From an uncultured Actinomycetes bacterium (lineage in GTDB: Bacteria; Actinomycetota; Thermoleophilia; RBG-16-64-13): 64,000 bases of DNA. Shown one piece after another: positions 27,839-57,776 of this stretch. Numbering within the stretch: position 1 is the stretch's first letter; every line of letters starts with the position of its first letter. The notes beneath the pieces were generated by a model. It searched no databases. It was not told the origin of the DNA and was given only the letters and a program-made list of their open reading frames with translations. The position numbers were made by a program, and so were the translations under genes. The DNA is taken from assembly GCA_963806155.1 (NCBI GenBank), contig CAWDXC010000009.1, positions 198,520 through 262,519 on the forward strand. The letters run 5' to 3'.

Positions 27839-30541
27839 TTGATGCCGGCGGAAAACGATCGTCGCGCAGAATTGCGCATCAAAGACAAGACGGTACTCAA
27901 GACCCTCGCCCAGTGCTCCTATGCGCAGGGGGGCGAACTGGCGTCAGTGGACGTGAAGGACGGCAAGATCGTCCGCATCCGCCCCCACCACCACACCGAA
28001 AGATACACCGAAGAAGAGCTGGGGCAGTACGAGCTCGAGAAGGACGGCGTGAAGTACAAGACGCCACCCAAAGGTCTCCTCGCCCCCTATCAGATCGCCT
28101 ACAAGAAACGGGTCTACTCTCCCAACCGCATCCTCTACCCGCTCAAGCGAGTCGACTGGGATCCCGATGGGGAGAGGAACACCCAGAACCGGGGCAAAAG
28201 CAAGTACGTCCGCATCTCCTGGGACGAGGCGACCACCACCATCGCCGACGAGATCAAGCGCATCCACAAGGAGTACGGGCCCTATGGGGTGCTCGCCCAC
28301 GGTGACGGCCACGGCGAGACGAAGACCGTGCACGGAGCCCACGCCGTGATGATGGACCTCCTCGAGCTCACCGGCGGCTTCACCCAGGCCATCCGCAACG
28401 CGGACAGCTGGGAGGGTTGGTTCTGGGGCACCAAGCACGTCTGGGGCAACGGGGAGAACGGCCTCGTCCTCCCCGCCGACAACATGATGAACGACGTCAC
28501 CCAGAACACCGACATGATCGTCCACATCGGGGCCGATCTGGAGACCACCCCCTGGGGATTCGCGGGCCAGTTCCCCTCGAACGTCCTTTACTTCTGGCAG
28601 AAGCTAGGTAAGAAGCAAGTCTTTGTCTCCCCCGATCTCAACTACTCGGGCGCCATCCATGCGAGCAAGTGGATCCCCATCCTTCCTAACACCGATGCTG
28701 CCCTGCATCTGGCCATAGCCCATACCTGGATGACCGAGGGCACCTATGACAAGGACTACGTCGCCACCCATGTGGTGGGGTTCGACAAGTTCGAGGACTA
28801 CGTGCTCGGCCGCGAAGACGGGATCCCCAAGACTCCCGAGTGGGCCTCGGCCAAGACCGATGTGCCCGAATGGACCATCAAGGCTCTTGCCCGGGAATGG
28901 GCGGCGCAACCGACCACGGTCATGCACTTCTACGGTGGCTCCTACATCCGTGGCCCCTACTCCCACGAACCGGCCCGGCTGGAAGCCTGCCTCCTCGGCA
29001 TGCAGGGGTTGGGCAAACCGGGCTGCCACCAGTACTACAAGATGGGCGGCGACGACCACTGGATGAACGACACGCCCCGCCCCCTGAAGACCATCCCCGA
29101 CATGCGCATGAGATTCGACCCCACCATCGCCAAGGGCAGCGCGGATGGGCAACAGGGGCCACCTAGCTGGAACATCTTCCCCGGCCAGAAACAGCTGGCG
29201 GTCTCCTCCAAGCAGATCATCCCCAAGACGCAACTGGCTCAGGCCATCCTCGAGGGAACCTGCTGGAGCTCCGGGAGCACCCAGCAGTTCATGCACCTGG
29301 AAGACCAGTTCAAGAGGTACGAGTATCCCATCCCGGCGGAAGAGGGCGGCACCGAGATCCACATGATCTGGATGGACAACCCCTGCCGCACCACCTGCTG
29401 GAACGACGGCTTCATGACGGTGGAGGCCTTCCGCAGCCCCAAGATCGAGACCATCGTGGTGCAGCACCTGTGGCTGGAGAACGACACCATCCTGGCCGAC
29501 CTCATCCTGCCCGTCAACACCAAGCTGGAGGAGGAAGACATCGGCCGTATGTCCGCCGGCGGACGCTCCGTGCACGGCATCCTGCTCGAGAACCAGGCCA
29601 TCGAACCCTTGGGCGAATCGCTCTCCGACTACCAAGCCGTGGGTGAGGTGGCCAAGAAGCTGGGCCTCTACGAGGAGTTCAGCGCGGGGATGACCATAAA
29701 GGAGAAGATCAAGGCGGGCTTCGACAACATGGACATCCACGATTTCGTCACCTGGGAAGATTTCCAGGACAAGCAGTACTTCATCATGCCCACCGATCCC
29801 GAGTGGGATAAGGTCCCGGCCGGTCTGCGCCAGTTCTACGAAGATCCCGAGAAGCATCCGCTGGAGACCCCCAGCGGCAAGCTCGAGTTCTACTCCCAGC
29901 GTCTGGCCGATCACTACCCCGACGACAAAGTGAGAGGCCCTCTGCCCAAGTGGATCGAGAAGGACGAGTTCCACGACGAGCGGGTCTCCAGCCCGCGGGC
30001 GCAGGAGTACCCGCTGCTGCTCGTGACCAACCACGGCCGCTGGCGGACCCATGCTCAGAACGACGACATCCCCTGGCAGCGGGAGATCATGACCTGCAAG
30101 GTCAGAGGTTGGGACGGTTATCTGTACGAGCCCATCTGGATCCATCCCACGGATGCCGAAGCGAGGGGCATCAAGGACGGCGACATCCTCAAGATGTTCA
30201 ACGAGAGAGGTACCGTCCTCGGCGGAGCCCTCGTCTGGGAGCGCATCATGCCTGGAGCCGTGTCCATGGACCACGGCTCCCGCGTCGACCTCATCAACGT
30301 CGGTCCGGACGGTTTCCTCGATCGCGGGGGGGCGAACAACCTCATCTCTCCCATCAACGGCATCTCCCCCAACTGCTGGGGTATGGCCACGAGCAGCTTC
30401 CTGGTGGAGGTGCAGAAGGTGAGCATGGCCGAGATGGAGGAATGGCGGGAGAAGTACCCCGAGGCCTTTGCGAGGAAATACGACCCGGCCTCGGGTCTGC
30501 GCTTCGAGGCCTGGGTGTTAGAGGAAGGAGAGGCCCTATGA
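27839..30541 (+). CDS. molybdopterin (bis-MGD) oxidoreductase large subunit, pyrogallol transhydroxylase / resorcinol hydroxylase-like, cytoplasmic (alpha1)
   Basis: 900 aa; no Tat motif and no N-terminal Cys cluster; conserved YERISWDEA-like, NADSWEGWFWG, LEDxxKH.., FxDP, MopB C-terminal domain; stop overlaps beta start (ATGA). Confidence 0.8.
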   Translation: MMPAENDRRAELRIKDKTVLKTLAQCSYAQGGELASVDVKDGKIVRIRPHHHTERYTEEELGQYELEKDGVKYKTPPKGLLAPYQIAYKKRVYSPNRILYPLKRVDWDPDGERNTQNRGKSKYVRISWDEATTTIADEIKRIHKEYGPYGVLAHGDGHGETKTVHGAHAVMMDLLELTGGFTQAIRNADSWEGWFWGTKHVWGNGENGLVLPADNMMNDVTQNTDMIVHIGADLETTPWGFAGQFPSNVLYFWQKLGKKQVFVSPDLNYSGAIHASKWIPILPNTDAALHLAIAHTWMTEGTYDKDYVATHVVGFDKFEDYVLGREDGIPKTPEWASAKTDVPEWTIKALAREWAAQPTTVMHFYGGSYIRGPYSHEPARLEACLLGMQGLGKPGCHQYYKMGGDDHWMNDTPRPLKTIPDMRMRFDPTIAKGSADGQQGPPSWNIFPGQKQLAVSSKQIIPKTQLAQAILEGTCWSSGSTQQFMHLEDQFKRYEYPIPAEEGGTEIHMIWMDNPCRTTCWNDGFMTVEAFRSPKIETIVVQHLWLENDTILADLILPVNTKLEEEDIGRMSAGGRSVHGILLENQAIEPLGESLSDYQAVGEVAKKLGLYEEFSAGMTIKEKIKAGFDNMDIHDFVTWEDFQDKQYFIMPTDPEWDKVPAGLRQFYEDPEKHPLETPSGKLEFYSQRLADHYPDDKVRGPLPKWIEKDEFHDERVSSPRAQEYPLLLVTNHGRWRTHAQNDDIPWQREIMTCKVRGWDGYLYEPIWIHPTDAEARGIKDGDILKMFNERGTVLGGALVWERIMPGAVSMDHGSRVDLINVGPDGFLDRGGANNLISPINGISPNCWGMATSSFLVEVQKVSMAEMEEWREKYPEAFARKYDPASGLRFEAWVLEEGEAL

Positions 30542-31344
30542 GCAAGGTTTTCGTGTTTGATACCGCCATCTGCAACGGCTGCTACTGCTGCCAGATCGCC
30601 TGCAAAGACGAGCACTGCGGCAACGACTGGACTCCCTACGCCAAGCCGCAGCCCGATACGGGCCAGTTCTGGCTCAAGCTCTCCGAGCATGTGCGCGGGA
30701 CCGTGCCCAAGGTGAAGATGCACTACCTGGCCTCGCTCTGCGCCCACTGCGACGAGGCCCCGTGCATGGCCGCCTGCTCGGTGGAAGGAGCCATCTACAA
30801 GCGCGCGGACGGGTTGGTCATCATCGATCCAGAGAGGTGCACAGGCTGCATGAGCTGCCTGGACGCGTGCCCCAGCGATTCCATCTACTTCAACGAAAAC
30901 CTCACCATCGCTCAGAAGTGCACGGGCTGCGCCCATCTGCTCGACGCCGGCTGGACCGAGCCCCGCTGCGTGGACGCCTGCCCGACTCTGGCCCTGAAGT
31001 ACATGGACGAGGATGAGGCAAAGGAACTGATCGCCGGGGCCGAGACCAGGAATCCGGCCCGAGACGAGCCTCGCCTCTACTACCTGAACATCCCCAAGAA
31101 GTTCGTCGGCGGAACGGTCTACGATCCCGTCGCGAAAGAGGTCGTGAAAGGAGCGACCTGTACCCTTACTGGTAACGGCAGCACCTGGACTGAGGCCACC
31201 GACGGCTTCGGGGACTTCTGGTTCGAGGGCCTCGTGGCGGGCGCATACTCTCTGGAGATAGCGGCCGCGGGCTTCCCGACCAAGCGATTCCCGGAGATAG
31301 CCGTCGAGAATGACGTCAACCTGGGAGACATCCCTTTGGCTTGA
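30538..31344 (+). CDS. 4Fe-4S ferredoxin-type beta subunit with C-terminal carboxypeptidase-regulatory/TTR-like beta-sandwich domain (beta1)
   Basis: CNGCYCCQIACKDEHCG, CxxCxxxPC, CTGCMSCLDACP, CTGCAHLLD...RCVDACP cluster motifs; C-term GTVYDP...GDFWFEGL...Y.LE; translationally coupled to alpha1. Confidence 0.8.
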   Translation: MSKVFVFDTAICNGCYCCQIACKDEHCGNDWTPYAKPQPDTGQFWLKLSEHVRGTVPKVKMHYLASLCAHCDEAPCMAACSVEGAIYKRADGLVIIDPERCTGCMSCLDACPSDSIYFNENLTIAQKCTGCAHLLDAGWTEPRCVDACPTLALKYMDEDEAKELIAGAETRNPARDEPRLYYLNIPKKFVGGTVYDPVAKEVVKGATCTLTGNGSTWTEATDGFGDFWFEGLVAGAYSLEIAAAGFPTKRFPEIAVENDVNLGDIPLA

Positions 31345-31407
31345 CGCGTGCTTAGGATTAAGCTTGATAGGTCGGCTGGCGGCCCCAGCGAGATAGAAGG
31401 AGCGAGA

Positions 31408-34216: not shown

Positions 34217-35689
34217 CTACTGGAAGCAGAGCTTCCCAGGGTTCATCACGTTGTTCGGGTCGAAGATCCCCTTCACCTTTCGGAGCGCCATCGTGGTACC
34301 AGCGTCTCTCCTATAGGCCATGTCCGCCCAGGGGCCGTAAGGCCGGGAGAAGAAGGCCCCCCTATTCGCCAGAGCGCCGGCGGCGGCGTCCACCAAAGTC
34401 TTCACGGTCTCCTTCTCGGCGAGGTTGTCCTTGTCGAAGAAAAGATTGAACTCGCAGTGGTAATTGACTCCCTGGACCGCCGGCTGGAGATAGATGCCCA
34501 TGTCTGCGACGTCGTACTCAGACTCCATCGCGACGGTCTTCATGGTGTCTATGAGTTCTGGGAGCTTCTCGTGGACCGTTATGAAGAAGATGTCCGCGCA
34601 GCCACTCTTCGCATCGGCTTTCCAATACCCATCCGCAGAGGGCTCGTGCAGCAGGCTCATCAGCTCGAACGCGGAGATCGTGCCCACAGACCTGAGCGGC
34701 TCCACTCTGATGGACTGCGCGATGGTGGAGATGTCCTTCTGGACGTAGCTTATGCGGTCCTCTGGGAAATAGCGGATGCCGGAGATCGTGTAGAACAGTA
34801 TCCAGTTGGGAAGCCCGAATCTCAGCTTCTCGTAGTCGCCAGACCCATCCCGAGTCATCATCCGAGCCAGGTTGGAATCGTTCAGCAGCAGACAGTCGTC
34901 AGCCAAGCGATTGCGGATGAGCCAGTACGCGAACTCCAACAGACTGCCCAGCTTGTCCGAGCCGACCAGATAAGGTTCCTCGATACTGGGCAGATGCTCG
35001 CATCTGACCGTGGCCCAGGTCACGATGCCCATCGTGCCTTGACCGCCCTGGATGAGCCTCAAGAAACCAGCCTGCATAGGGCCTGCAGCCTCGTTTTGGG
35101 CAGCCCCGGCCGCCCACTGCTCCTCCAGAGTGCCGGGGCCGGCGGCCGACCCAGTCCTAAAGACCTCCCCCGAGCCATAGATCACTTCTGTGCAGGCCAT
35201 CGGGTCGGAGGTGTCCCAGTGGTATTTGGGCATGATCACCGGCTCCCGCTCCAGGAGGCTTCCGACTACCGATTTTGTGGCGCGCGGCAGAAGGGGCAGG
35301 TTCAGGCGAAGTCCGGCTTCACGCGCAGCAGGGATCAAGTCGCGGAAGGTGACTCCCGGCTCGACCATAGCGATGCGGTGCTCGAGGTCGAGCCTCACGA
35401 TCCTGTTCATCCCGCTCAAGTCGACGATGACCGCTCCCCCGACACTGGGGACGGTGTCGCCCCGGAAGTGGGGCCCCCCAGAGCTGACGGGGATCAGCGG
35501 AGTGGCCGAAGTATTGGCCCATTGGACTATCTTCTGTATCTCCCCCGCATCTTTGGGTCTCACCACACAGCGAGGCGTGATGGGATGGACGAAACTCTCG
35601 TCCGACGCGTATCCACTGAGGACCGCCGGTGCGTCGGTCACGTTGTCCGCACCGACTATGTTGGCTAATTCTGTCTTCTCTGACATCAC
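34217..35689 (-). CDS. FAD-binding oxidoreductase, GlcD-like (type B paralog)
   Basis: ~60% identical to 24606..26072 product. Confidence 0.8.
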   Translation of the reverse strand: MMSEKTELANIVGADNVTDAPAVLSGYASDESFVHPITPRCVVRPKDAGEIQKIVQWANTSATPLIPVSSGGPHFRGDTVPSVGGAVIVDLSGMNRIVRLDLEHRIAMVEPGVTFRDLIPAAREAGLRLNLPLLPRATKSVVGSLLEREPVIMPKYHWDTSDPMACTEVIYGSGEVFRTGSAAGPGTLEEQWAAGAAQNEAAGPMQAGFLRLIQGGQGTMGIVTWATVRCEHLPSIEEPYLVGSDKLGSLLEFAYWLIRNRLADDCLLLNDSNLARMMTRDGSGDYEKLRFGLPNWILFYTISGIRYFPEDRISYVQKDISTIAQSIRVEPLRSVGTISAFELMSLLHEPSADGYWKADAKSGCADIFFITVHEKLPELIDTMKTVAMESEYDVADMGIYLQPAVQGVNYHCEFNLFFDKDNLAEKETVKTLVDAAAGALANRGAFFSRPYGPWADMAYRRDAGTTMALRKVKGIFDPNNVMNPGKLCFQ

Positions 35690-35732
35690 ACACCCCGTTC
35701 AGTATGGTTCGCCCTGGCTTTCATCGAGCGGT

Positions 35733-37298
35733 TCAGTCCTTGGCCGAGATGTACATCGCAGGTTCGGAGACCCCGTTGGGGTCGAAAGTCTTCTTGATCT
35801 TCCGCAACCACAGATGGTAGTCGCCCAAGTGGGGACCCCACTTGTCGTGCGCGCGGTCGCCCCACACCGTCACTGGAGCCGTGTAGCATCTCGCGATGCC
35901 CAGGTCTTCGCACGTGTCGGAGAATTCCATGAGGTCTCTCCAGCCCTCCCCCGTCGGGTGGGTCATGACGAGTTGTTCCGCGTGGCCGGTGTGGCCGTTC
36001 TCGTAGACCATCCCTATGACGCAGTCGAAACCGTCGTCCGCCCTGACGGTGCCCTTGGCCTGCAGCGCCTTCTTGAGCTCCATGCATTCCAGCATGAACT
36101 TGGTGGACGTCTGGAACATGGCAGAGTCACCGATCAGACCGTGGAACCTGCCTGTCGCTCGGAATCCCTCCCTGACGCCCCCGCTGAACCTGGTCTCGCA
36201 CCAGAGGATCTCCCGCTTGACCTCAGGCTTCTCGATATGGCTCAAGAACACGCCGCCGGTCTCCTCCAGAATCTGGGCCAGGACCTTCTGCCTATAGCGA
36301 AACTCTGGGATGGTGGCACCTGAAATGATCACTAGGAACCCAGGACGTCCGTTGGACTCCTCTTGCATCTGCCTGAGCAGGACGTCTGCTTCGCTGCCGG
36401 TACCGGTGAAGGCCTCGGCCATCATCGGCAGGGGCAGGCGGAAGATCATGGTGGCTATCTCGCTCTCCCCCATCTTGATCGCGGCTTCGATCAGCTTCTC
36501 CCAGTCGGGGAAGAGGGGATGGTGGATCTCGAAGTTCGGCGGCATCTCTTTGAGGCTGTAGCTCGGAGAAACACCCTCCAGTTCGGGCTCCGGCGGACCA
36601 TAGTACGGGTACAGCTTGAGCCCGGCCTTGGTGAAGATCCCCAGACCGCCCATGACCGCCTGAGTGCCTCGTATGACTCCTCGCAGGGAGGGGCCGGGGC
36701 CGTCGCCGCAGAACCAGCCGGCGCCGGCTCCTGACGATCCGAACTTGAGCAGCTCGCCGTCGGGAGTCACCCATTCCACAGCCAGGGTGTTGCGGTCTCC
36801 GCAGCTGGTGCTCACGCCGCCGGACCCGGTGCCCTGGTGGGCCGTGATGGGCATGGCGCTGGTATTGCACCCGGCCCCGATCATATGGAGGTTGAGACCT
36901 TTCTTCATGGCCTCGGCCTGCAGGAGGGCACAGGTGACGTAGGGTTCCACGACTGCATACATGCTCTTCTCGTTCAACTCGATGATACGGTTGAAGCGGC
37001 GCATGTCCACATGGATGGCGTCGTCATCGAGACCGAGCGCGCTGTAGAAGCCCCAGCCGTTGCTGATGGCCTTGTACCTGACCTTGTACTTGTTGCAGGC
37101 TCTGACTATCGCCTGCACTTCCTCGGTCCTCCCCGGCATGAGAATGGCTCCGGATCTCGGGAGAAAGGGAGTGCCCGTAGATATCTCCGCGCCCCATTCG
37201 AACGCATAGGAGTCGAGTACGGCCGGTTCCTCAGAGATGTAGTCCGGTCCTACGATCTCCTCGAGGGCCTTGTATGCGTCCCTACTGTTTAGAGCCAT
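35733..37298 (-). CDS. FAD-binding oxidoreductase, PCMH/VAO-type (type A paralog, intact)
   Basis: 521 aa, ~55% identical to 21768..23318 product. Confidence 0.8.
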   Translation of the reverse strand: MALNSRDAYKALEEIVGPDYISEEPAVLDSYAFEWGAEISTGTPFLPRSGAILMPGRTEEVQAIVRACNKYKVRYKAISNGWGFYSALGLDDDAIHVDMRRFNRIIELNEKSMYAVVEPYVTCALLQAEAMKKGLNLHMIGAGCNTSAMPITAHQGTGSGGVSTSCGDRNTLAVEWVTPDGELLKFGSSGAGAGWFCGDGPGPSLRGVIRGTQAVMGGLGIFTKAGLKLYPYYGPPEPELEGVSPSYSLKEMPPNFEIHHPLFPDWEKLIEAAIKMGESEIATMIFRLPLPMMAEAFTGTGSEADVLLRQMQEESNGRPGFLVIISGATIPEFRYRQKVLAQILEETGGVFLSHIEKPEVKREILWCETRFSGGVREGFRATGRFHGLIGDSAMFQTSTKFMLECMELKKALQAKGTVRADDGFDCVIGMVYENGHTGHAEQLVMTHPTGEGWRDLMEFSDTCEDLGIARCYTAPVTVWGDRAHDKWGPHLGDYHLWLRKIKKTFDPNGVSEPAMYISAKD

Positions 37299-37311
37299 CG
37301 GGCGTATCCCC

Positions 37312-41195: not shown

Positions 41196-41332
41196 AGACT
41201 GGTCTCTTCCTTGTGCCTCGCGTTCGTTCGCCCGCGGATGGGAAGTGACTCCCCAGTCACTGTCTGAGAGCATATCAGAATCGCGTTTTAGAGCCAAGCG
41301 TTCTGTTGGCCCTAACGCCGCGAGGGCAAAGC

Positions 41333-41361: not shown

Positions 41362-41366
41362 GGTTG

Positions 41367-46732: not shown

Positions 46733-46834
46733 AACCCGAGCCGGCATCTACTGGACAGGTGTTTGACCCCGATGACCAAGGGGACGGGTCGGTCTGCATG
46801 CCGCCCGTCTTTCCCTAGAAGGGACGCGAAGCCC

Positions 46835-47623
46835 ATGTTGACTATCGTGGTCTGTGCCAAGCAAGTGGTCGACCCCGAGGCGCCTCTCTCCTTGTTCGAG
46901 ATCGCAGCCGATGGGAAAAACCTGGTCCCCCCCCCGGGCACTCCGCCGGTCTCAAGCACGTTTGACGAAAACGCCCTGGAGGCGGCGCTGCGCGTCAAGG
47001 AAGCGGTCGGCGCCAAAGTCGTCGTCCTCAGTATGGGGAACAAGCTGGCGAAGGCGGTCCTTAAGAAGACATTAGCGGCAGGCGCGGATGAACTGATCCT
47101 TCTGGAGGACGAGCAGTTCGTCGACTTGGAGAGCAGGGGTACGGCTCTGGCTCTGGCTAAGGCCATCGAGAAGATAGGCGACGTGGACCTCATCCTCTGC
47201 GGCCGGCAGGCCGCGGACACCGATGCCGGCCAGGTGGGGACTGGCATCGCGGCCATTCTGGACATCCCTGCCATAACCCTGGCCCAGAAACTAGAGGTCA
47301 AAGACGGCACCGTCCGGGTGGAGCGTCTCGTCGCCGAGGGGTATGAGGTCGTCGAGGCTGCCCTGCCGGCGTTGGTCACGGCCAGTAACGAGGTCGGGGA
47401 GTTGCGCTTTCCCCCAGTGAAAGCAGTGATCGCCGCGCAGAAGATGGATGTCACGGTCTGGGATGCTCAGGCGCTCGGGGTCGATCTTGCTGGTTCCGCC
47501 CGGACCGATCTCGTGAAGTTCTATGTTCCTGATCGCAAAGTCGAGTGTCAATTGATCGAGGGAAGCAGTCCGGAGGAGATCGCGGAGGGCATAGCCGCGG
47601 TCCTGAAGACCCGTGTCGTCTGA
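46835..47623 (+). CDS. etfB: electron transfer flavoprotein beta subunit
   Basis: MLTIVVCAKQVVDPE N-terminus, ETF beta fold. Confidence 0.85.
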   Translation: MLTIVVCAKQVVDPEAPLSLFEIAADGKNLVPPPGTPPVSSTFDENALEAALRVKEAVGAKVVVLSMGNKLAKAVLKKTLAAGADELILLEDEQFVDLESRGTALALAKAIEKIGDVDLILCGRQAADTDAGQVGTGIAAILDIPAITLAQKLEVKDGTVRVERLVAEGYEVVEAALPALVTASNEVGELRFPPVKAVIAAQKMDVTVWDAQALGVDLAGSARTDLVKFYVPDRKVECQLIEGSSPEEIAEGIAAVLKTRVV

Positions 47624-47663
47624 CGACCGGCCCGCCGCAAAGTCTATCTAGGGGGCACCGAAA

Positions 47664-48662
47664 GTGAGTGAAAGCAAGGGTGTGCTGTTCCTGGCCGAAC
47701 GTAGGGGCCAGGGACTCTCCAGGATGAGCGCCGAGCTTGCCACCGTCGGCCTCGAGCTCGCGGGTCACATGGGCGAGGGCTTGTCTGCAGTGCTGGTGGG
47801 CACCGATCTGGGAGACGGTGCGCAAGAGTTGATCGACATGGGCGTGCAGAAGGTGTACGTGGTCGAGGATCCGTTGCTCTCTCGATACGGTCCGGAGCCC
47901 TATCTGGCGCTCATGACTCAGATCTGCGAGGACGTGAAACCCAGGGTGCTATTGATGGGCCACACTGAGATCGGCCGAGACCTGGCGCCCCGCCTGGCGT
48001 TCAAGCTGGACACCGGCCTCGCACCGAACTGTGTCGCCCTGCACTTCGAACAGGGATCCGGGAACCTCCAGGCGACCCGTCCGGTCTTCGGGGGGAAGGC
48101 TCACGGGCTCTTCACCCTGACGGGTGCTACGCCGCACATACTCACGGTGGGCCTTAAAGTCTTTGAGCCGGCTGCCGCCGAGGCCGGCCGGCAGGGTGAA
48201 GTGGTGACTTTCGCTCCTGCGATCGACCCCGGCGCCTTCAAGATGTCGGTCGTCGACCGGGTCGAGGACATCACCGAGGGGGTCCGACTCGAGGACGCGG
48301 CCGTCATCGTCGCGGGAGGGCGCGGTGTGGGCAGCACCGAGGGTTTTGCCCAACTCCGGGAACTGGCGGCCTTGTTGGGAGGATGCATAGGCGCATCCCG
48401 GGCGCCGGTCGACAACGGGTTGGTCCCCAGCAGTCTACAGGTGGGTCTGACCGGCACGGTGGTGAGCCCCAACGTTTATATCGCCATCGGCATCTCTGGT
48501 GCCGCGCAGCATATGGCCGGTTGCTCGGCGTCCAAGACCATCATCGCGGTCAATCGCGACCTAGAAGCCCCGATCTTCCAGAGGGCCCATTTCGGAGCCG
48601 TCGCCGATTGGAAGGACATCCTGCCGCCGCTGACCGAGAAGTGCCGGTCGATGCTGAGCTAG
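47664..48662 (+). CDS. etfA: electron transfer flavoprotein alpha subunit
   Basis: GTG start; C-terminal FAD-binding motif SGAAQHMAG...IAVNRD. Confidence 0.85.
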   Translation: MSESKGVLFLAERRGQGLSRMSAELATVGLELAGHMGEGLSAVLVGTDLGDGAQELIDMGVQKVYVVEDPLLSRYGPEPYLALMTQICEDVKPRVLLMGHTEIGRDLAPRLAFKLDTGLAPNCVALHFEQGSGNLQATRPVFGGKAHGLFTLTGATPHILTVGLKVFEPAAAEAGRQGEVVTFAPAIDPGAFKMSVVDRVEDITEGVRLEDAAVIVAGGRGVGSTEGFAQLRELAALLGGCIGASRAPVDNGLVPSSLQVGLTGTVVSPNVYIAIGISGAAQHMAGCSASKTIIAVNRDLEAPIFQRAHFGAVADWKDILPPLTEKCRSMLS

Positions 48663-48708
48663 AGGGAACAGGACTTCATCCCGGCCGCTTGGCCCAAGGA
48701 GAACGGAG

Positions 48709-50717
48709 TTGACGTACACGTCCGCAGTCTTCGTGGTGGTCCTCCTGGCCGCCCTCGCGCTCTTCGTCTACTTCCTCGTGCCGCGGGTGCCGCTACCTGC
48801 TCCTGGGCCGGCCCGAGCCCAGGGCCGACCAGGTGGCGCGAAGGACCGGGGGGTTCCTGGCGCTAGTGTTCGGACAGAAGAAGCTCTTCAAGGAGCGCGT
48901 GGGCATCATCCACTTCTTCATCTTCTGGGGCTTCATCGTCATCGCGTTCGGCACTCTGCAGATCATCGGGGAGGGCCTGAGCGAGGACTTCTCGCTTCCT
49001 CTCATCGGTGACAGCAAGGCCTTCTATCTTCTGAAGGACATACTGAGCGTCCTGGTGCTGGTCGGGGTCGTCGTCGCGGCCTATATCCGCTACGTCGTGC
49101 GGCCGGCGCGCCTCAAGGCGAACCTCGAGGCCGGCGTGATTCTGGCTCTGATCTTCGGCCTCATCGTCACGGAGTTCTTCTACAGCGGCATCTCCTACGC
49201 CCTCGATCCCAGCGAGAGCCATTCACTGGCCTTCGTGACCGTGGCCATCGTCGCAGTTGGTGGACGGGGCAAGCGTGAGTACGTTGGAGTTGGCCCAGGA
49301 CATCCTCTGGTGGCTGCACATCCTTCTACTCCTGGGGTTCCTCGTCTACATCCCCATCTCCAAGCACCTGCACCTCCTCGCCTGCCCCTTCAACGAGTGG
49401 CTGAGGAACCTCAAGCCGCGAGGCGGGCAGATCTACCCGGTAGATTTCGAGAGCGAGGACGTGGAAGAGTTCGGCGTGAGCCGGGTGGAAGGCTTCACCA
49501 AGAAGCAGCTCCTCGACCTGTACGCATGTGCCGAGTGCGGCCGCTGCCAGGACAACTGCCCGGCCTACCAGAGCGGCAAGACTCTCTCCCCCAAGCTGCT
49601 GATGACCAAGCTCCGCGATCACCTGGTGGAGCAGGGGCCGAGCCTTCTACGAAAGACCAACACATCATCCTCCGAAGAAACGCCTGCCGGGGATGCAGCC
49701 GCACCCGCCATGATCGGCGACGTGATATCCACCGAAGAGATATGGGCCTGCACCACCTGCTACTCCTGCCAGGAGCAGTGCCCCGTGATGAACGAGCACG
49801 TCAACAAGATCGTCGACATGCGCCGGCACCTCGTCCTTATGGAGGGTGAGTTCCCCCACGAAGCGACCCTCGTGTTCAGGAACATGGAAGTGAACGGTAA
49901 TCCGCTCGGCGAGAGCGCGCTCATCCGCGGGGATCACCTCCGCAAGCTGGGGGTCCCCACCATCGGGGAAAACCCGGATGCGGAGATGATGTATTGGCCA
50001 GGATGCAGTGGTGCGCTCGACGCACGGAATCAAAAGGTCTCGACCGCTTTTGTGAAGCTGGCGGAATCTGCAGGCGTGTCGCTCGCCACGCTCGGGAATG
50101 AGGAGAAGTGCTGTGGGGAGGCGGCCCGGCGCCTGGGCAACGAGTACCTCTACCAGACCCTCGCCCTGGGAAACGTGGAGGTCCTCAACAGTTACGGCGT
50201 CAAAAGAATCGTCACCCAATGCCCACACTGTTTCAACACGCTCAAGAACGAGTATCCGCAGCTGGGCGGCGACTTCGAAGTCCTGCACCATACCCAGCTC
50301 CTCTCGGAACTCATCGAGGCCGGGAGGCTCGAGCTGGGAGCGTCGGAGCGCAAGAAGGTCACCTATCACGACGCCTGCTACCTAGGCCGCTACAACGGCA
50401 TCTACGAACTGCCGCGACAACTTCTTCGGACCGCCGGGCTCGACCTGGTAGAGATGCCCCGCAGGAAGACCAAGGCGTTCTGCTGCGGCGGGGGCGGTGG
50501 CCGGATGTGGCTGGAAGAGGACGAGGGTGAGCGCATAAACAACATCCGGACCGACGAGGTCCTCGGCGTGTCGCCGGATATCGCCGCCGTCGCCTGCCCT
50601 TATTGCCTGACCATGCTGAAGGACGGTGTCGATGCTCGCGAAGCGGGCGACCGGGTGCGAGTCATGGATATAGCCGAGATCCTCCAAGTGACCGTTTCGA
50701 GCAGTCCCACCCCCTAG
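48709..50717 (+). pseudogene. EtfD-like membrane-bound (Fe-S)-binding oxidoreductase (NarI/HdrE-like TM domain fused to CCG-domain FeS protein), two apparent frameshifts (~48788, ~49265)
   Basis: TM helices across frames 48709/48833/49257; cytoplasmic part has CAECGRCQDNCP, CTTCYSCQEQCP and CCG motifs (EKCCGE, FCCGGGGG); follows etfBA directly. Confidence 0.6.
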
Positions 50718-51037: not shown

Positions 51038-53551
51038 GTGACAGAGCAGGTCTTCATGAACGCGACGATCGCCGGCCCGGTCTCCGTCTACGTGAGAGAC
51101 GGCAAGATCGTGAGGATCCGGCCGCTGCAGGTCGATGGACAAGACCTGAAGCCCTGGACGATCGAAGACTCCCGAGGCGCGAAGTATTCTCCCCCCAAGA
51201 AGCTGAAGCTCGGGCCCTATGTGATGGCCGCTCGAACGCAGCTCTATTCCGACGACCGGCTTCTTCGCCCCATGAAACGGGTCGACTTCGATCCTAAGGG
51301 GGAAAGACACCCGGAGAACCGCGGCAAGTCCGGATACGAGCCGATAAGCTGGGACGAGGCTCTGGACCTAGTGGCCGGCGAGATGGAGAGAATACGGACC
51401 GAGCACGGTCCGGCGGCGATCGCGGCCCTCGACCAGGACCACCATAACTGGGGCATCGTGGGCTACCGGTTTGGGCCTTATTTCCGGTTCTTCAACACCA
51501 TCGGGTTCACAGAGGTGCTGCACAATCCGGACAGCTGGGAAGGCTGGCACTGGGGCACTCCCCATGTGTACGGCTACTGGTGGCAACTAGGCGTGCCCGA
51601 GCAGTTCGATCTGCTCGAGGATACGCTGAAGCACGCCGAGAACATCATCTACTGGTCGAACGACCCGGACTACACCAGGGCCGCCTACAACGGCATGGAG
51701 TCTGCCATCTGGTTCGACTGGATGCGCGACGCCGGCAAGCAGCAGATATTCATCGATCCCTTCTGCAACTACACCGCCTCCAAGCTGGCCGACAAATGGA
51801 TCGCCCCCCGGCCGGGCACCGACTCGGCCTTGGCTCTGGCCATCGCTTGGGTCTGGATCGACGAAGACAGCTACGACGCTCAGTACGTGGCCGAGAAGAC
51901 AGTCGGCTTCGAAGAGTTCAAACGATACGTGACGGGCGAAGAAGACGGGGTGCCCAAGACCCCCGCGTGGGCGGCCGACATAACAGGCGTTCCCGCCCGC
52001 ACTCTTGAAGCTCTGGCCCACGAGTGGGCCGCCAAAAGGACGACGATCGCAGGAGCCGGCATGGGCGGCGCGTGCCGCACCGCCTACGGGCACGAATACC
52101 CCCGGTTGGTGGTTTTGCTGCAGGCGATGCAGGGGCTAGGCAAGCCGGGCGTCAATCTGTGGGGCAACGCCACGGCCGCGCCGGCGAACTACAACGTCCT
52201 CTTCCCCGGATATGCCGATCTGGACGCCATGATGAGCTTCTCGAGCGCCGCACGGAAGAAGGCTATCAACCCCGTGGAGCAGCGCCTCTATCGCCTCATG
52301 CTGGCCGACTCCATCCTGGATCCGCCCGTCAAGTGGATGGGCGAGGGGTTCTGCGGCCAACAACTGGAGCAGCAGTTCGCCCGCTTCGAGTACCCCATGC
52401 CCGGCTACCCGGAAGTGAGGATGCTCTACCGCTACGGATCCGCCTCGCTCGGAACGATGACCGAGGGCAATAAGCTCGTGAAGATGTTCCAGAGCCCCAA
52501 GCTGGATATGGTGGTAGTGCAGGACTGCTGGTGGAACACCGAGACCAGGTTCGCGGACGTGATCCTGCCTGCGTGCACCAACTTCGAGCGCAACGACATC
52601 GCCGAGTGGGGAGAAGCCGGCGGGTACCTCAAATGGTGCTCGACCGGATCCAACTACCGCATCGTCACCTACCAGCAGAAATGCATCGAGCCTCTGGGCG
52701 AATCGAGATCGGATTACTCGATCTTCTCGGAGCTCGCCAAACGACTGGGGGTGTGGGAGGACTTCTCCGACGGAGGTCGCTTGGAAGATGATTGGATCAA
52801 GGCCTACTTCGACGTGAGCGACCTGCCCAAGTACATCTCCTGGGAGGAGTTCCTCAAGAAGGGGTACCACGTCATCCCGGTGCCCGAGCCGTATGAGTCC
52901 ACGCCAGCGTTCCGCTGGTTCTACGAAGGCAGGGACTGCGACACCCCCGACATGATGAACCCAAACAAGGGCACCGAGCGGGCCGGTCAGCTGGCTACCC
53001 CCAGTGGGAAGATCGAGTTCGTGTCCGGCAGCCTGACCAAATTCACGCCCGACGACGAAGAGCGGCCGCCCGTGCCTCACTACATCCCCAGTTGGGAAGG
53101 TCCCGAGTCCGAGTTGGCCAAAAGGTATCCGTTACAGCTGATAACCCCCCACCCCCGCTACTCCTTCCACACCCACTTCGACAAGAAGGGCTCCTGGATC
53201 AACGACATCCCCGGTCATCGCCGTCTCGTCAACGGCTACTACTACTGGACGGTCAGGATCAGCCCCTCCGATGCAGCGGAGCGCGGGATCAAGGATGGAG
53301 ATGTCGTGCGACTCTTCAATGACCGCGGGTCGGTCCTCGGAGCGGCGACGGTGACCGAGAGGATCAAGTCCGGGGTGATCCACAGCTACTGCTCCTGCGG
53401 CAGGTACGACCCCGCGGAGCCCGGGAAGGCCTACTCCCTCGATCGGGGCGGCTGCGTCAACCTGCTCACCTCCGATAGGCTCATGTCCAAGAACGCACCG
53501 GGGATGGCACCCAACTCCTGCCTTGTCGAGATCGAAAGATGGGAGGCCTGA
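51038..53551 (+). CDS. molybdopterin oxidoreductase large subunit, closest to pyrogallol transhydroxylase AthL-type (alpha3)
   Basis: 837 aa; GTG start with GAAGGGAG SD; motifs GPVSVYVRDGKIVRIRP, YEPISWDEA, HNPDSWEGWHWG, FDLLEDTLKHAE, ACTNFERNDI, KCIEPLGES, DRGGCVNLLTSDR. Confidence 0.8.
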   Translation: MTEQVFMNATIAGPVSVYVRDGKIVRIRPLQVDGQDLKPWTIEDSRGAKYSPPKKLKLGPYVMAARTQLYSDDRLLRPMKRVDFDPKGERHPENRGKSGYEPISWDEALDLVAGEMERIRTEHGPAAIAALDQDHHNWGIVGYRFGPYFRFFNTIGFTEVLHNPDSWEGWHWGTPHVYGYWWQLGVPEQFDLLEDTLKHAENIIYWSNDPDYTRAAYNGMESAIWFDWMRDAGKQQIFIDPFCNYTASKLADKWIAPRPGTDSALALAIAWVWIDEDSYDAQYVAEKTVGFEEFKRYVTGEEDGVPKTPAWAADITGVPARTLEALAHEWAAKRTTIAGAGMGGACRTAYGHEYPRLVVLLQAMQGLGKPGVNLWGNATAAPANYNVLFPGYADLDAMMSFSSAARKKAINPVEQRLYRLMLADSILDPPVKWMGEGFCGQQLEQQFARFEYPMPGYPEVRMLYRYGSASLGTMTEGNKLVKMFQSPKLDMVVVQDCWWNTETRFADVILPACTNFERNDIAEWGEAGGYLKWCSTGSNYRIVTYQQKCIEPLGESRSDYSIFSELAKRLGVWEDFSDGGRLEDDWIKAYFDVSDLPKYISWEEFLKKGYHVIPVPEPYESTPAFRWFYEGRDCDTPDMMNPNKGTERAGQLATPSGKIEFVSGSLTKFTPDDEERPPVPHYIPSWEGPESELAKRYPLQLITPHPRYSFHTHFDKKGSWINDIPGHRRLVNGYYYWTVRISPSDAAERGIKDGDVVRLFNDRGSVLGAATVTERIKSGVIHSYCSCGRYDPAEPGKAYSLDRGGCVNLLTSDRLMSKNAPGMAPNSCLVEIERWEA

Positions 53552-53553
53552 CT

Positions 53554-54384
53554 ATGTCGCGCTATGCCCTGCTCATAGACATGGAGAAATGCAACGGCTG
53601 CTACGCCTGCTTCATGGCCTGTCGCGACGAGCACTGCGGGAACGATCACCTGCCTTACTCGGCGGCCCAGCCCTATTCGGGCCACTTCTGGATGCGCATC
53701 ATCGAACGCGAACGCGGGTCGTATCCCAGGGTCAAGGCCGCCTACATCAAGGTCCCCTGCATGCACTGCGATGACGCTCCCTGTGTCACCCAGTATCCGG
53801 ACCAAGTCTACAAGCGCCCGGACGGCATCGTCATCATCGATCCGGTCAAAGCCAAAGGGGCGAAGGAGATCCTGGATTCCTGCCCCTACCGGGTGATCTT
53901 CTGGAACGAGGAGACCGATCTGCCGCAGAAATGCACCATGTGCGCGCATCTTCTCGACGAGGGTTGGGAAGAGCCCCGGTGCGTGGAAGTATGTCCCACC
54001 AAGGCCCTTCTCTTCGGCGACCTGGACGACCTGGAGAGCGAGGTAGCCAAACGTCTAGCTGAAGGTGAGGCTGAGGTCTTCCACCCCGAATACGGCCTCA
54101 AGGGGAGCGTCCGGTACCTGGGCCTGCCCAAACGGTTCATCGCCGGCAGCCTGGTCTTCGGCGATACCGACAAATGTGCGGGCGATGTCACCGTGACCCT
54201 GGCCGGCGACGGGGAGAAGAGGCAGGCCACGAGCAACGGCTTCGGGGATTTCGAGTTCGAGGGAGTGGACAAGGACAAGGAATACATCCTGGAGGTCAAG
54301 CACCCAGGCTACCGGGACAGGCAGCTCGCCGTGTACACACAGATCGACAAATACCTAGGCGACATAGTGTTGGAGAAGATCTAG
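53554..54384 (+). CDS. 4Fe-4S ferredoxin beta subunit with C-terminal beta-sandwich domain (beta3)
   Basis: GGGAGG SD; CNGCYACFMACRDEHCG etc.; 3 nt downstream of alpha3. Confidence 0.8.
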   Translation: MSRYALLIDMEKCNGCYACFMACRDEHCGNDHLPYSAAQPYSGHFWMRIIERERGSYPRVKAAYIKVPCMHCDDAPCVTQYPDQVYKRPDGIVIIDPVKAKGAKEILDSCPYRVIFWNEETDLPQKCTMCAHLLDEGWEEPRCVEVCPTKALLFGDLDDLESEVAKRLAEGEAEVFHPEYGLKGSVRYLGLPKRFIAGSLVFGDTDKCAGDVTVTLAGDGEKRQATSNGFGDFEFEGVDKDKEYILEVKHPGYRDRQLAVYTQIDKYLGDIVLEKI

Positions 54385-54431: not shown

Positions 54432-56945
54432 GTGGTGGAAGAGGTCCTGACCCAGTGCACTTCAGGCGGAGCGGTCCAGGTCCATGTCGAGGATGGGGTG
54501 ATCACCAAGATCCGGCCGCTCGTCTTCGACGAGACAGATGCCCCTGGGTGGACGCTCGAGGCCAGAGGTAGAGAGTTCAGTCCTCCGCGCAAGACAACGG
54601 TGATGCCGTACGTCGTCGCGGAGAGGAGCCGCATCTACTCGGAGAACAGGATCAAGTATCCCTGCAAGCGAGTGGATTTCGATCCCAAGGGGGAACGGAA
54701 CCCCCAGAACAGAGGGAAGTCCGCCTACGAGCGCATAAGCTGGGACGAAGCGTTCGACATAGTCGCGGGCGAGATGCAGCGAGTGCGCGAGATCTACGGG
54801 CCGGCCGCCATAGCTGCCTCCACCGGATCGCACCACAACTGGGGTCTGCTGTTCTACAAGATGGGACCCTTCGGCCGCTTCTTCAACATGCTCGGCTACA
54901 CCGAGATCGTGGACAACCCGGACAGCTGGGAGGGTTGGCACTGGGGCGCCATCCACACCTGGGGCTACTGGTGGCGGCTCGGGGTCTCGGACAACTACGA
55001 CATGCTCGAGGAGGCCCTCAAGAACACCGACCAGGTGGTCATGTGGTCGGTGGACCCGAATACAACCACCGGCTATCCGGGCCAGGATTCGCTCCTGTGG
55101 CGGATATGGTTGAAACAACTGGGCATCAAGCTGATCTTCATCGATCCCTGGTGCAACTTCACGGCCGGTATGCTGGCGGACAAATGGTTCGCCCCGCGGC
55201 CGGGCACGGACGCGGCTCTGGCTCAGGCCATCGCCTACGTGTGGATCAAAGAGGGCTCCTACGACAAGTGGTTCGTCGAGAACCGGACCGTGGGCTTCCC
55301 GGAATTCGAGAAGCACATCCTGGGCGAGCAAGACGGGATAGCCAAGACGCCGGAGTGGGCCGCGGAGATAACCGGCATCCCGGCCCGCGACATACAGGCG
55401 CTCGCTCGCAGTTGGGCCTCGAAGCGGACCATGCTTGGGTGTGGGGCTATGGTCGGGCTCGGGGGCGCGTGCCGGGGAGCGTACGCGACCGAATGGGCCC
55501 GGATGATGGTGCTCCTCATCTCGATGCAGGGCTTGGGCAAACCGGGTGTCAACGTCTGGGGCGGGTGCGGAATGGGCCAGCCCGCCGACTACTCCTTCCG
55601 GTTCCCCGGCTATTCCTCAGCCGGTTGGGACGCCTTCAACCTCGTCTCCGAGAAGAGAGCGATCAATAACGTGTCCCAGAAGATCTGCCGTCTGCTCCTG
55701 CCCGAGGCCATCCTCGCTCCACCGGTGGAGTGGGATGGGGAGGGCTTCTGCGGGTTTGCGCTCGACCAGCAGTTCACTCACCACACCTACCCCGAACCCG
55801 GGACCACCGAGATCAAGCTGCTCTACCGGCACGGGGGCTCCTACATCTCCACCATGACCGACACCAGCCGGTTCGTCCGGATGTATCAGAGTCCCAAGCT
55901 CGAGTGCGTGGTCAGCCAGGATTGCCACTGGCAGAGTGAGACCAAGTTCGCCGACGTGATCCTGCCGGCCAGCACCAATTTCGAGCAGGAGGACATCTGT
56001 GAGTGGGGGAATCCCGGTGGATACGCGGAAAACAAGGGTGGAGAGAACTTCCGCGTCGTCATCAGTCAGAAGAAGTGCATCGAGCCCCTCTGGGAATCGA
56101 AGCCGGACTGGGACATCTACTGCGAACTGGCCAAACGCTTGGGCTTCCTCGAGGACTATACAGAGGGCAATACGCGGGAGGATTGGATCAGAAAGCTCTT
56201 CGACTCCACCTCGCTGCCGGAGCACGTGAGCTACGAGGACTTCAAGAAGAAGGGCTACTTCGTGGTGCCTCCGCCTTCGGGCGACTACAAGCGCACCGTC
56301 TCCAACCGCTGGTATTACGAGGGCCGCAAGTGCGACGTCCCCGACTCGTTCAATCCTACGATCAGGGGCGAGGGCACGGACAAGCTGGGCACCTACAGCG
56401 GCAAGATCGAGTTCGTCTCGCAGAGTCTGCTGGAGCACTTCCCGGATGACGAAGAACGGCCGCCGCTGCCCCGGTACATCCCCAGCTGGGAAGGGTACGA
56501 CAGCGCGCTCGCCAAGAAGTACCCGCTGCAGCTCCTCACGACACACGCCCGCTTCTCGTTCCATACGCAATACGACAACAAGACCCCGTGGCTGGACGAG
56601 ATCCCGGTGCACCGCGTCATCAAGGACGGGTACGCTTATCTTCCGGTCCGGATCCATCCTTCGGATGCCGCGCCGCGCAACATCCGCCACGGAGACATCG
56701 TGAAGCTCTTCAACGACAGGGGTTCCGTGCTGTGCATCGCTCAACTCACCGAGCGGGTCAAGCCCGGCGTCCTTCACACCTACCAGGCGGGAGCCAAGTA
56801 CGATCCGCTCGAGCCGGGCAAGGCCGGAAGCACCGACAAGGGTGGCTGCGTCAACATACTGACCCCCGGGCGGATGATCTCGAAGCACGCGCCAGGCATG
56901 GCCAACAACTCCTGCCTGGTGGAAGTGGCGAGGAGTGATGTCTAG
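54432..56945 (+). CDS. molybdopterin oxidoreductase large subunit, transhydroxylase-like (alpha4, ~50% identical to alpha3)
   Basis: 837 aa; AAGGAG SD; only 47 bp after beta3, so probably co-transcribed. Confidence 0.8.
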   Translation: MVEEVLTQCTSGGAVQVHVEDGVITKIRPLVFDETDAPGWTLEARGREFSPPRKTTVMPYVVAERSRIYSENRIKYPCKRVDFDPKGERNPQNRGKSAYERISWDEAFDIVAGEMQRVREIYGPAAIAASTGSHHNWGLLFYKMGPFGRFFNMLGYTEIVDNPDSWEGWHWGAIHTWGYWWRLGVSDNYDMLEEALKNTDQVVMWSVDPNTTTGYPGQDSLLWRIWLKQLGIKLIFIDPWCNFTAGMLADKWFAPRPGTDAALAQAIAYVWIKEGSYDKWFVENRTVGFPEFEKHILGEQDGIAKTPEWAAEITGIPARDIQALARSWASKRTMLGCGAMVGLGGACRGAYATEWARMMVLLISMQGLGKPGVNVWGGCGMGQPADYSFRFPGYSSAGWDAFNLVSEKRAINNVSQKICRLLLPEAILAPPVEWDGEGFCGFALDQQFTHHTYPEPGTTEIKLLYRHGGSYISTMTDTSRFVRMYQSPKLECVVSQDCHWQSETKFADVILPASTNFEQEDICEWGNPGGYAENKGGENFRVVISQKKCIEPLWESKPDWDIYCELAKRLGFLEDYTEGNTREDWIRKLFDSTSLPEHVSYEDFKKKGYFVVPPPSGDYKRTVSNRWYYEGRKCDVPDSFNPTIRGEGTDKLGTYSGKIEFVSQSLLEHFPDDEERPPLPRYIPSWEGYDSALAKKYPLQLLTTHARFSFHTQYDNKTPWLDEIPVHRVIKDGYAYLPVRIHPSDAAPRNIRHGDIVKLFNDRGSVLCIAQLTERVKPGVLHTYQAGAKYDPLEPGKAGSTDKGGCVNILTPGRMISKHAPGMANNSCLVEVARSDV

Positions 56946-57776
56946 ATGACCAGATACGGCATGGTAGTCGATATCGTCAAGTGCAGTGGCTGTTACAACT
57001 GCTTTCTAGCCTGCAAGGACGAGCACTGCGGCCATGATCAGCCGGGGTACGCCGCCCCTCAGCCGATGACCGGACACTCCTGGATGCGGCTGGTGGAGAC
57101 TGAGCGAGGCTCGTATCCAAAGGTCAAGGTCGCCTACACGGCCGTCCCCTGCATGCACTGCCAGGAAGCCACCTGTCTCGAGAAGGCCGAAGGCGGAGCG
57201 GTCTATCGCCGGGCCGACGGCATCGTCATGATCGACCCGGTGAAAGCGAAAGGGCAGAAGCAGCTGGTCTCTTCCTGCCCCTACCGGGTCATCTACTGGA
57301 ACGAAGAGCTAGACCTGCCGCAGAAGTGCACGTTCTGTGCCCATCTCCTCGATGCCGGCTGGAAAGAGCCCCGGTGCGTGGAGCTATGTCCCGCCGGCGC
57401 TCTGACCTTCGGGGATCTGGACGATCCCGAGAGCGAAGTGGCGAAATTGGTCTCCGGGCAGAGGACGGAGGCCCTACATCCGGAGTTCGGGCTGAAGGAG
57501 AACGTCGTCTACGTCAACCTGCCCAAGAAGTTCATAGCCGGGACCGTGGCGTTCGGGGATACGGACGAATGCGCCCCCGGGGTGACCGTCACCGTGGGCA
57601 TTGACGGCCGGCAGCAGACGGCCATGACGGACGAATTCGGCGATTTCGAGTTCGAAGGTCTGGCCGAGGGGCAGGACTACACCGTGATCCTTGCCGCGGA
57701 CGGATACCGTTCCCAGGAATTGAACGTGAAGACACTGAGGGACATCTACCTGGGAGTCATAACGCTCGAGAAGTGA
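56946..57776 (+). CDS. 4Fe-4S ferredoxin beta subunit with C-terminal beta-sandwich domain (beta4)
   Basis: ATG directly after alpha4 TAG; same Cys pattern. Confidence 0.8.
   Translation: MTRYGMVVDIVKCSGCYNCFLACKDEHCGHDQPGYAAPQPMTGHSWMRLVETERGSYPKVKVAYTAVPCMHCQEATCLEKAEGGAVYRRADGIVMIDPVKAKGQKQLVSSCPYRVIYWNEELDLPQKCTFCAHLLDAGWKEPRCVELCPAGALTFGDLDDPESEVAKLVSGQRTEALHPEFGLKENVVYVNLPKKFIAGTVAFGDTDECAPGVTVTVGIDGRQQTAMTDEFGDFEFEGLAEGQDYTVILAADGYRSQELNVKTLRDIYLGVITLEK

Follow-up and report, generated by a model that had tools for sequence, protein, structure and literature searches.

To our knowledge, only three enzymes of the AthL/BthL molybdenum family have been characterised. The closest described systems for the genes considered here are the Pelobacter acidigallici enzyme pyrogallol-phloroglucinol transhydroxylase (AthL/BthL, also PgtL/S; PDB 4v4c), the resorcinol hydroxylase RhLS of Azoarcus/Aromatoleum anaerobium and the 3,5-dihydroxybenzoate hydroxylase DbhLS of Thauera aromatica AR-1. 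Enzymes of the RhL/PgtL family are cytoplasmic and carry a serine as molybdenum ligand (Wells et al, 2023, PMC10100899), and hydroxyl transfer requires 1,2,3,5-tetrahydroxybenzene as cosubstrate (PMC13039779). We analysed a 64,000-nucleotide stretch of DNA (the window) from an uncultured bacterium of the Thermoleophilia (GenBank assembly GCA_963806155.1, contig CAWDXC010000009.1, positions 198,520 to 262,519), which carries four complete alpha/beta gene pairs of this family (A1B1 to A4B4) and part of a fifth beta gene (B5p). RhLS and DbhLS belong to the same Ser-ligated cytoplasmic family as these pairs. Pelobacter has one AthL/BthL, whereas the window has several paralogues, without phloroglucinol pathway genes nearby. 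On balance, and with some reserve, the sequences lead us to favour the view that the window is part of a phenolic catabolic island with five O2-independent bis-(molybdopterin guanine dinucleotide) (bis-MGD) enzymes of the AthL/BthL family, and that these represent two functional types.

Operon structure and family membership

The window has a G+C content of about 62% and numerous spurious open reading frames (ORFs), from which the alpha and beta genes were distinguished by codon-position G+C. A first-pass annotation of this DNA had placed four large subunits of 837–900 amino acids (aa) at positions 27839, 41531, 51038 and 54432, and these ORFs were confirmed. The A1 gene (27842..30541, plus strand) encodes 899 aa; its likelier start is the ATG at 27842, which we prefer for its better spacing from a GGAG sequence, with a TTG at 27839 (900 aa) also possible. 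A2 (41531..44179, plus strand) spans 882 aa, and A3 (51038..53551, plus strand) and A4 (54432..56945, plus strand) each span 837 aa and begin with GTG. The partner beta genes, all on the plus strand, are B1 (30538..31344, 268 aa), B2 (44176..45018, 280 aa, 75% identical to B1), B3 (53554..54384, 276 aa, with ATG 53554 as the likelier start) and B4 (56946..57776, 276 aa). The translational coupling proposed at first pass is seen as ATGA overlaps at the A1/B1 and A2/B2 junctions and as TAG-ATG at A4/B4, and a gap of 2 nt separates the A3 stop from the B3 start. The fifth, partial beta gene was also present (63461..64000) and required one correction, as it lies on the minus strand. Its translation comprises only the C-terminal 179 aa of the protein; because the gene runs off the window, its alpha gene lies beyond the window end.

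All four alphas contain the Pfam domains Molybdopterin and Molydop_binding. The Pfam models for the twin-arginine translocation (Tat) signal and for FS0 gave no match in any of them, and inspection revealed neither an N-terminal cysteine motif nor a twin-arginine motif in any alpha. The same models did recognise FS0 in a neighbouring 757-aa MopB protein and Tat signals in solute-binding proteins, so these features would have been detected in the alphas, and the description of the large subunits as lacking both was borne out. No gene for an NrfD- or DmsC-type membrane anchor was identified by Pfam among the window neighbours. Both alphas and betas are predicted to be cytoplasmic.

Sequence searches against the PDB covered A1, A4 and B4, whereas A2 and A3 were compared with AthL in a MAFFT alignment, for which the AthL and BthL sequences were rebuilt from the printed search alignments. 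AthL (4v4c_A) was the best match of A4 (844 bits) and of A1 (397 bits), followed in both searches by dimethyl sulfoxide (DMSO) and trimethylamine N-oxide (TMAO) reductases at 250–290 bits. BthL (4v4c_B, 225 bits) was the best match of B4, the only beta searched by sequence. In the alignment, A3 or A4 is 49% identical to AthL and A1 or A2 36%; B3 and B4 are 43% identical to BthL. The first domain of AthL is represented by the Pfam model AhtL-like_1st (PF21423, cutoff 27 bits), above which A3 (61.6 bits) and A4 (77.9 bits) score and below which A1 (20.9 bits) and A2 (15.9 bits) remain. The complete betas, of 268–280 aa, and B5p contain Fer4_11 and CarboxypepD_reg domains; the latter (PF13620) scored above its cutoff in B1, B2, B4 and B5p and below it in B3 (26.7 bits).

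The AlphaFold model of A1, built from 52 sequences, reached a predicted local distance difference test (pLDDT) score of 85 and a predicted template modelling score of 0.89. Foldseek returned 4v4c_A as its first match with a template modelling (TM) score of 0.82, and DMSO reductases with TM scores of about 0.73. The B1 model was built from five sequences and its ferredoxin part was poor (pLDDT 57.6 overall), and from this model only the C-terminal domain was used: residues 190–266 form seven strands with pLDDT values of 70–95. With the B1 model, Foldseek ranked 4v4c_B first; the C-terminal region also matched carboxypeptidase D in its transthyretin-like domain (5aq0_B, TM score 0.75). These matches support the beta-sandwich predicted for the C-terminus of the beta subunit. 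Assignment to the family of pyrogallol-phloroglucinol transhydroxylase and resorcinol hydroxylase is supported by AthL/BthL being the best solved matches of the proteins searched. The top matches did not place the alphas with respiratory reductases, nor did the predicted structure of the beta (B1) lack the sandwich, and the family assignment therefore stands.

The next-closest structures, DorA, TorA, BisC and MtsZ, share with the alphas the serine ligand of molybdenum, the lack of FS0 and the four-domain fold. One could accordingly propose that all pairs are soluble S- or N-oxide reductases of the BisC/TorA/DorA type, unrelated to phenols. The best NCBIfam matches of the alphas are indeed bisC_fam, dmsA_ynfE and TorA, the automatic JGI names of homologues are mostly "S/N-oxide reductase-like", with "TMAO reductase" also in use, and the Pelobacter transhydroxylase itself can take DMSO as oxidant in vitro. 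However, the NCBIfam scores of 347–394 bits amount to about a third of the thresholds (cutoff 1017; range 778–1465), and the AthL score exceeds those of the DMSO/TMAO reductases threefold for A4 and 1.6-fold for A1. BisC, DorA and TorA, moreover, consist of one subunit each, in contrast to the alphas here, all of which are coupled to a beta that resembles BthL; the oxide reductases as a group are mostly Tat-exported and lack the N-terminal domain 1 of AthL. With the phenol-binding residues of AthL kept in A3 and A4, and with Firmicutes orthologues adjoining the phloroglucinol pathway (both described below), we give this proposal next to no credence and rejected it for the five pairs.

Two clades of alpha and beta subunits

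The alphas fall into two groups, as the first-pass annotation had recognised: A1 and A2 are 83% identical, A3 and A4 57%, and identity between the groups is 39%. For wider comparison, a scan of species-representative genomes yielded 80 loci (given L-numbers here), from which 114 alphas and 91 betas were extracted. The molybdenum-ligand motif reads DSWEGW in A1–A4, and all but one of the 114 homologues aligned (113) conserve it, and the expected ligand serine is thus present in all four alphas. The residues of the substrate pocket are a different matter. In AthL numbering, A3 and A4 keep His144, Tyr152, Arg/Lys153, Asp174, Ser175, Trp176, Tyr404 and Tyr560, whereas A1 and A2 keep His144, Asp174, Ser175 and Trp176 and lack Tyr152, Arg153, Tyr404 and Tyr560. 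A3 and A4 resemble AthL in the presence of Ser175 within DSW, in the absence of FS0 and in their cytoplasmic alpha/beta architecture. They differ from it at position 354, where the tryptophan of AthL is replaced by methionine in A3 and leucine in A4, and at position 153, where A3 has the arginine of AthL and A4 a lysine. The resulting active-site signatures are HYRDSW-M-YY for A3 and HYKDSW-L-YY for A4.

Among the homologues, these signatures take the general form HY[RK]DSWxYY in the AthL clade and H..DSW.-- in the A1 clade, which has invariant motifs of its own (D.HGE.K, GG.YIRGPY..EP and SNHGRWR.HA). A midpoint-rooted neighbour-joining tree of 155 alphas, built without an outgroup of other MopB enzymes and without RhL or DbhL, splits exactly into the two signature clades. 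AthL is nested among the A3/A4-type sequences, and A1 and A2 belong to the sister clade.

The beta subunits follow the same division. B1 and B2 share the same 19 cysteines, with group II (CxxCx4Cx3C) and group III (CxxCxxCxxxCP) both complete; because all 16 ligand cysteines are present, four [4Fe-4S] clusters are predicted for each. Missing from B3 (14 cysteines), B4 and BthL are the group III CxxCxxC and the fourth group II cysteine, which are ligands of the distal cluster; B3 and B4 also resemble BthL in their C-terminal transthyretin-like domain. B3 and B5p have KAKG...C in place of group III, and so does BthL. The three-cluster pattern of B5p could be read at group III only, its cysteine groups I and II being outside the window. 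The first-pass description of a beta of about 270 aa with three [4Fe-4S] clusters therefore applies to B3 and B4, agrees with B5p at group III, and does not apply to B1 and B2, which have 16 cysteines for four clusters. Of the 56 A1-type betas among those extracted, 48 have the full set of distal (FS4) cysteines and four more have seven of the eight; none of the 27 AthL-type betas has the full set. All 27 pairs with an AthL-type alpha signature had a beta without the distal-cluster cysteines.

A1 and A2 are predicted to stand apart from the transhydroxylases as an uncharacterised sister clade. As they form a distinct clade, lack four Tyr/Arg residues of the AthL pocket and have a four-cluster beta partner, they are not to be read as transhydroxylases. 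A3B3 and A4B4, in contrast, are probably transhydroxylases, judging from their conserved residues.

It could instead be supposed that the four pairs are all isofunctional pyrogallol-phloroglucinol transhydroxylases and that their paralogy reflects gene dosage or recent duplication. The high identity between A1 and A2 agrees with this, and all pairs could be automatically annotated as pyrogallol hydroxytransferase, the name given for instance to P0203, which is 60% identical to A1. Against it, the clades share little identity, diverge at four positions of the active site and in how many clusters the beta holds, and are each conserved across phyla. The modest identity of A3 and A4, together with their joint retention in the related locus L082, marks these two as old, maintained paralogues. 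We consider isofunctionality of the four pairs improbable.

Distribution and proposed reactions of the two types

For each alpha, a collection of 5.8 billion proteins contains more than 5000 homologues (E≤1e-20), which come from Dehalococcoidia, Thermoleophilia, Desulfobacteraceae, Bathyarchaeia and other sources and some of which bear the name pyrogallol hydroxytransferase. The nearest relatives were found in the metagenome-assembled genome (MAG) MFD00032.bin.1.257 (95% amino-acid identity), in Gaiellales MAGs (82%) and in Thermoleophilia MAGs (79%). A1-type and AthL-type pairs adjoin in 25 of the 80 loci (14 of the 30 for which at least 20 kb was retrieved), in the three phyla Actinomycetota, Firmicutes and Proteobacteria. 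The clade with A1 is abundant in gut and rumen Oscillospiraceae. A tblastn search of plasmids returned only generically annotated homologues; the one examined, from Cupriavidus (L081), a member of the same bacterial class as the hosts of RhLS and DbhLS, is AthL-type and not A1-type. The paralogy that had been called massive at first pass is real in the sense of four complete pairs and a partial beta, but it is not exceptional. Three or four alphas occur together in eight loci, some of them from Sporobacter and Papillibacter MAGs, and the actinobacterial MAG MFD02979.bin.1.202 has at least eight alphas across four loci. Two operons had been described for Chloroflexi RBG-2 and RBG-1351, and three copies for Dehalococcoidia DEH-C11, in reports of 2013 and 2016. 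Neither the family nor its paralogy is rare; what is new here is the distinct four-cluster clade, together with its occurrence beside the classical type.

In what follows, we infer the substrates, reaction direction and redox partners of all pairs. In the first type (A3B3, A4B4 and the cut B5), a phenol would bind to the Ser-ligated molybdenum through a ring oxygen, with assistance from His144 and Asp174, and a hydroxyl would then be moved between ring positions or between phenols. In the Pelobacter enzyme, the tetrahydroxybenzene cosubstrate is presumably held by Tyr152, Arg/Lys153, Tyr404 and Tyr560. Electrons would not flow on balance in this chemistry, in keeping with a beta that is truncated to three clusters. 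Given their different residues at pocket positions 153 and 354, A3 and A4 probably act on different polyhydroxybenzenes or in sequence.

In the second type (A1B1 and A2B2), the core of molybdenum with serine, aspartate and histidine is kept, the residues of the cosubstrate site are lost and the beta would provide a four-cluster electron wire. Together, these features point to a net two-electron reaction on a phenol, either a water-dependent hydroxylation of the kind that resorcinol hydroxylase performs or its reverse, a dehydroxylation. The A1-type pairs are thus probably net-redox phenol hydroxylases or dehydroxylases. Net water-dependent phenol hydroxylation is the chemistry of RhLS and DbhLS, and it is the chemistry that we propose for the A1-type pairs. 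The beta would relay the electrons to a partner, either soluble or in the membrane, for which the neighbouring flavoprotein/CCG-FeS complexes, or electron-transfer flavoprotein (ETF) with ETF:quinone oxidoreductase, are candidates. More specifically, we tentatively suggest that the A1-type is an undescribed and widespread sister clade that performs net water-dependent hydroxylation of polyhydroxybenzenes. In one version of this suggestion, the A1-type would make or regenerate the 1,2,3,5-tetrahydroxybenzene cosubstrate for the classical transhydroxylase, which would explain the adjacency of both types in Actinomycetota, Firmicutes and Proteobacteria.

Genes for such candidate partners adjoin the A1-type pairs. 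Divergent from A1B1 lies a GlcDEF-like triad (FAD_binding_4/CCG-FeS/FAD_binding_4 by Pfam; 21768..26105, minus strand), which also adjoins A1-type pairs in six actinobacterial loci (L001, L002, L004, L009, L010 and L013). A second flavoprotein/CCG-FeS set (FAD_binding_4 and CCG/Fer4_8 by Pfam; 34217..40171, minus strand), syntenic in L001, is divergent from A2B2 and separated from it by a TetR gene (40236–41378). The FAD domains of both GlcDEF-like sets distantly resemble enzymes of the vanillyl-alcohol oxidase/p-cresol methylhydroxylase type. Between A2B2 and A3B3, Pfam identified ETF beta, ETF alpha and a frameshifted membrane FeS/CCG oxidoreductase (46763..50717, plus strand). A2B2, a binding protein, ETF beta/alpha, the oxidoreductase, A3B3 and A4B4 are on the plus strand throughout, and the order ETF-oxidoreductase-A3B3-A4B4 is kept in L082, a JGI contig with 92.6% nucleotide identity. 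The oxidoreductase gene (48709–50717) is split over three frames, with shifts near 48790 and at 49250–49266, whereas its L082 orthologue is an intact ORF of 667 aa; the split version is either a pseudogene or the result of indel errors in a long-read assembly. ETF also adjoins the A1-type pair in L002. In relatives from the Actinomycetota, the FAD/CCG/FAD triad, a MerR-TetR regulator and a binding protein accompany the A1-type pair.

The same neighbours could serve the reverse reaction. If the A1-type pairs were reductive dehydroxylases that use a polyphenol hydroxyl as electron sink, in functional analogy to the catechol dehydroxylases of the gut, the conserved GlcDEF-like dehydrogenases and ETF could donate electrons through the complete four-cluster wire of the beta. 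Reductive polyphenol metabolism is common in the gut and rumen, where Oscillospiraceae with the A1 clade abound, and bis-MGD enzymes are known to dehydroxylate catechols. The characterised catechol dehydroxylases, although they share bis-MGD and O2-independent aromatic hydroxyl chemistry with the pairs studied here, belong to another, FS0-containing clade near acetylene hydratase, and membership of that clade was rejected for the five pairs. The position of A1-type genes beside phloroglucinol genes in Firmicutes also points to carbon catabolism rather than respiration. The reaction direction of the A1-type is not readable from sequence, and we regard the dehydroxylase alternative as rather unlikely.

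A sixth MopB protein of the window (757 aa; 18386–20659, minus strand) has the FS0 cysteine motif and belongs to another clade. Its best solved match is acetylene hydratase (145 bits), and it resembles the catechol dehydroxylase/acetylene hydratase clade, unlike the five pairs. Its gene is co-oriented with that of a short-chain dehydrogenase/reductase (SDR; 20830–21591) and with the GlcDEF-like triad, and the same order is found in L001.

A link to the phloroglucinol pathway, with its enzymes PGR, DPGC, TfD and TAL, is provided by distant relatives. In at least 14 Firmicutes loci, A1-type/AthL-type arrays directly adjoin thiolase, SDR, cyclase, 3HCDH and BKACE genes (L049, positions 3–9586, and L027, L041, L044, L047, L051, L058–L062, L072, L073 and L076), the hosts being Sporobacter, Oscillospiraceae and Clostridiales MAGs. 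All five families belong to the phloroglucinol pathway that has been characterised in Clostridium scatologenes. For those Firmicutes, the context is good evidence of phenolic carbon being channelled by both clades into phloroglucinol degradation; for the window, it is indirect evidence. L049 additionally carries a MobA-like gene. The only SDR of the window is 28% identical to the phloroglucinol reductase-like SDR of L049; a PDB search with it gave no phloroglucinol reductase match, and we did not assign it that function.

Several points weigh against our interpretation. The cyclase, BKACE and 3HCDH families were not found in the 64-kb window, and no Pfam match among the scanned ORFs suggested a gallate decarboxylase, for which no dedicated search was made. 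Consequently, the first-pass idea of a tannin or lignin catabolic supercluster draws on family membership and on the context in distant relatives, and finds no counterpart of the phloroglucinol families in the window itself. The neighbourhood links of the A1-type to FAD, CCG and ETF genes are correlative. Cluster count alone is no proof that electron transfer takes part in catalysis, since BthL has three clusters although the Pelobacter reaction is redox-neutral. The A1 clade may hold a characterised member, RhL and DbhL being outside the tree. Finally, our interpretation relies on the substrate and cosubstrate pocket roles reportedly described by Messerschmidt et al (2004) for AthL positions 144, 152, 153, 174, 404 and 560.

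Other genes of the window and wider meaning

The window encodes three MerR_1-TetR_N fusion regulators with an unusual architecture of two helix-turn-helix domains, at 26324–27259 (minus strand), 31348–32439 (plus strand) and 59553–60932 (minus strand). The second of these lies directly 3' of B1, a position conserved in L001, L002, L010 and L017, and orthologues of the fusion adjoin A1-type operons in L001, L002, L010, L013 and L017. The divergent promoter region between the first MerR-TetR gene and A1 contains a perfect palindrome with 7-bp arms (27579–27597, GTGACCG-N5-CGGTCAC), which is not common to the regions upstream of A2 or A3. No shared operator or inverted repeat of at least 12 nt was found upstream of A1, A2 and A3, and a search of the same regions for sigma-70-like promoters found none.

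Five Peripla_BP_6 proteins are encoded at 11664–13142 (minus strand), 15355–16842 (plus strand), 32625–34121 (plus strand), 45116–46594 (plus strand) and 57746–59446 (minus strand), none of them with adjacent permease genes. The third, a solute-binding lipoprotein that follows A1B1, has an orthologue with 95% identity at the corresponding place in L001, and the fourth, with a Tat signal, follows A2B2. These two, the ones inspected, contain Tat-like signals, a lipobox and Thr-rich linkers. A PDB search with the binding protein identified no informative solved homologue or ligand.

Directly 3' of B5p, a gene of the aldehyde:ferredoxin oxidoreductase (AOR) family of tungsten enzymes and an ORF of 251 aa without Pfam match occupy 60500–63199 (minus strand). 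In PDB scores, the AOR-family protein is closer to AOR and formaldehyde ferredoxin oxidoreductase (about 190 bits) than to BamB (154 bits). At the other end of the window, two S15 (CocE/NonD-type) hydrolases with IclR regulators are encoded at 6322–8064 and 9682–11457, and an ORF of 255 aa without assigned function at 4179–4946, all on the minus strand. Orthologues of the S15 hydrolase and of the 255-aa ORF lie directly upstream of the A1-type pair in L004, which hints at ester hydrolysis upstream of the molybdenum enzymes. A URO-D-family ORF (5117–5890, minus strand) matches only the last third of the model, perhaps because of a truncation or a frameshift.

The breakdown and turnover under anaerobic conditions of polyphenols, among them tannins, flavonoids and lignin-derived phenols, controls carbon storage in peat and sediment and shapes the diet-microbiome chemistry of gut and rumen. 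Thousands of homologues of the enzymes described here are given the names "pyrogallol hydroxytransferase" or "TMAO reductase" by bulk annotation, and metagenome studies should be cautious about taking every homologue as a marker of pyrogallol conversion. The split into three-cluster and four-cluster types, repeatedly found side by side, offers a testable handle on the actual reactions. If the proposal for the A1-type is true, its hydroxylation would supply a missing step in the anaerobic breakdown of tannins and flavonoids.

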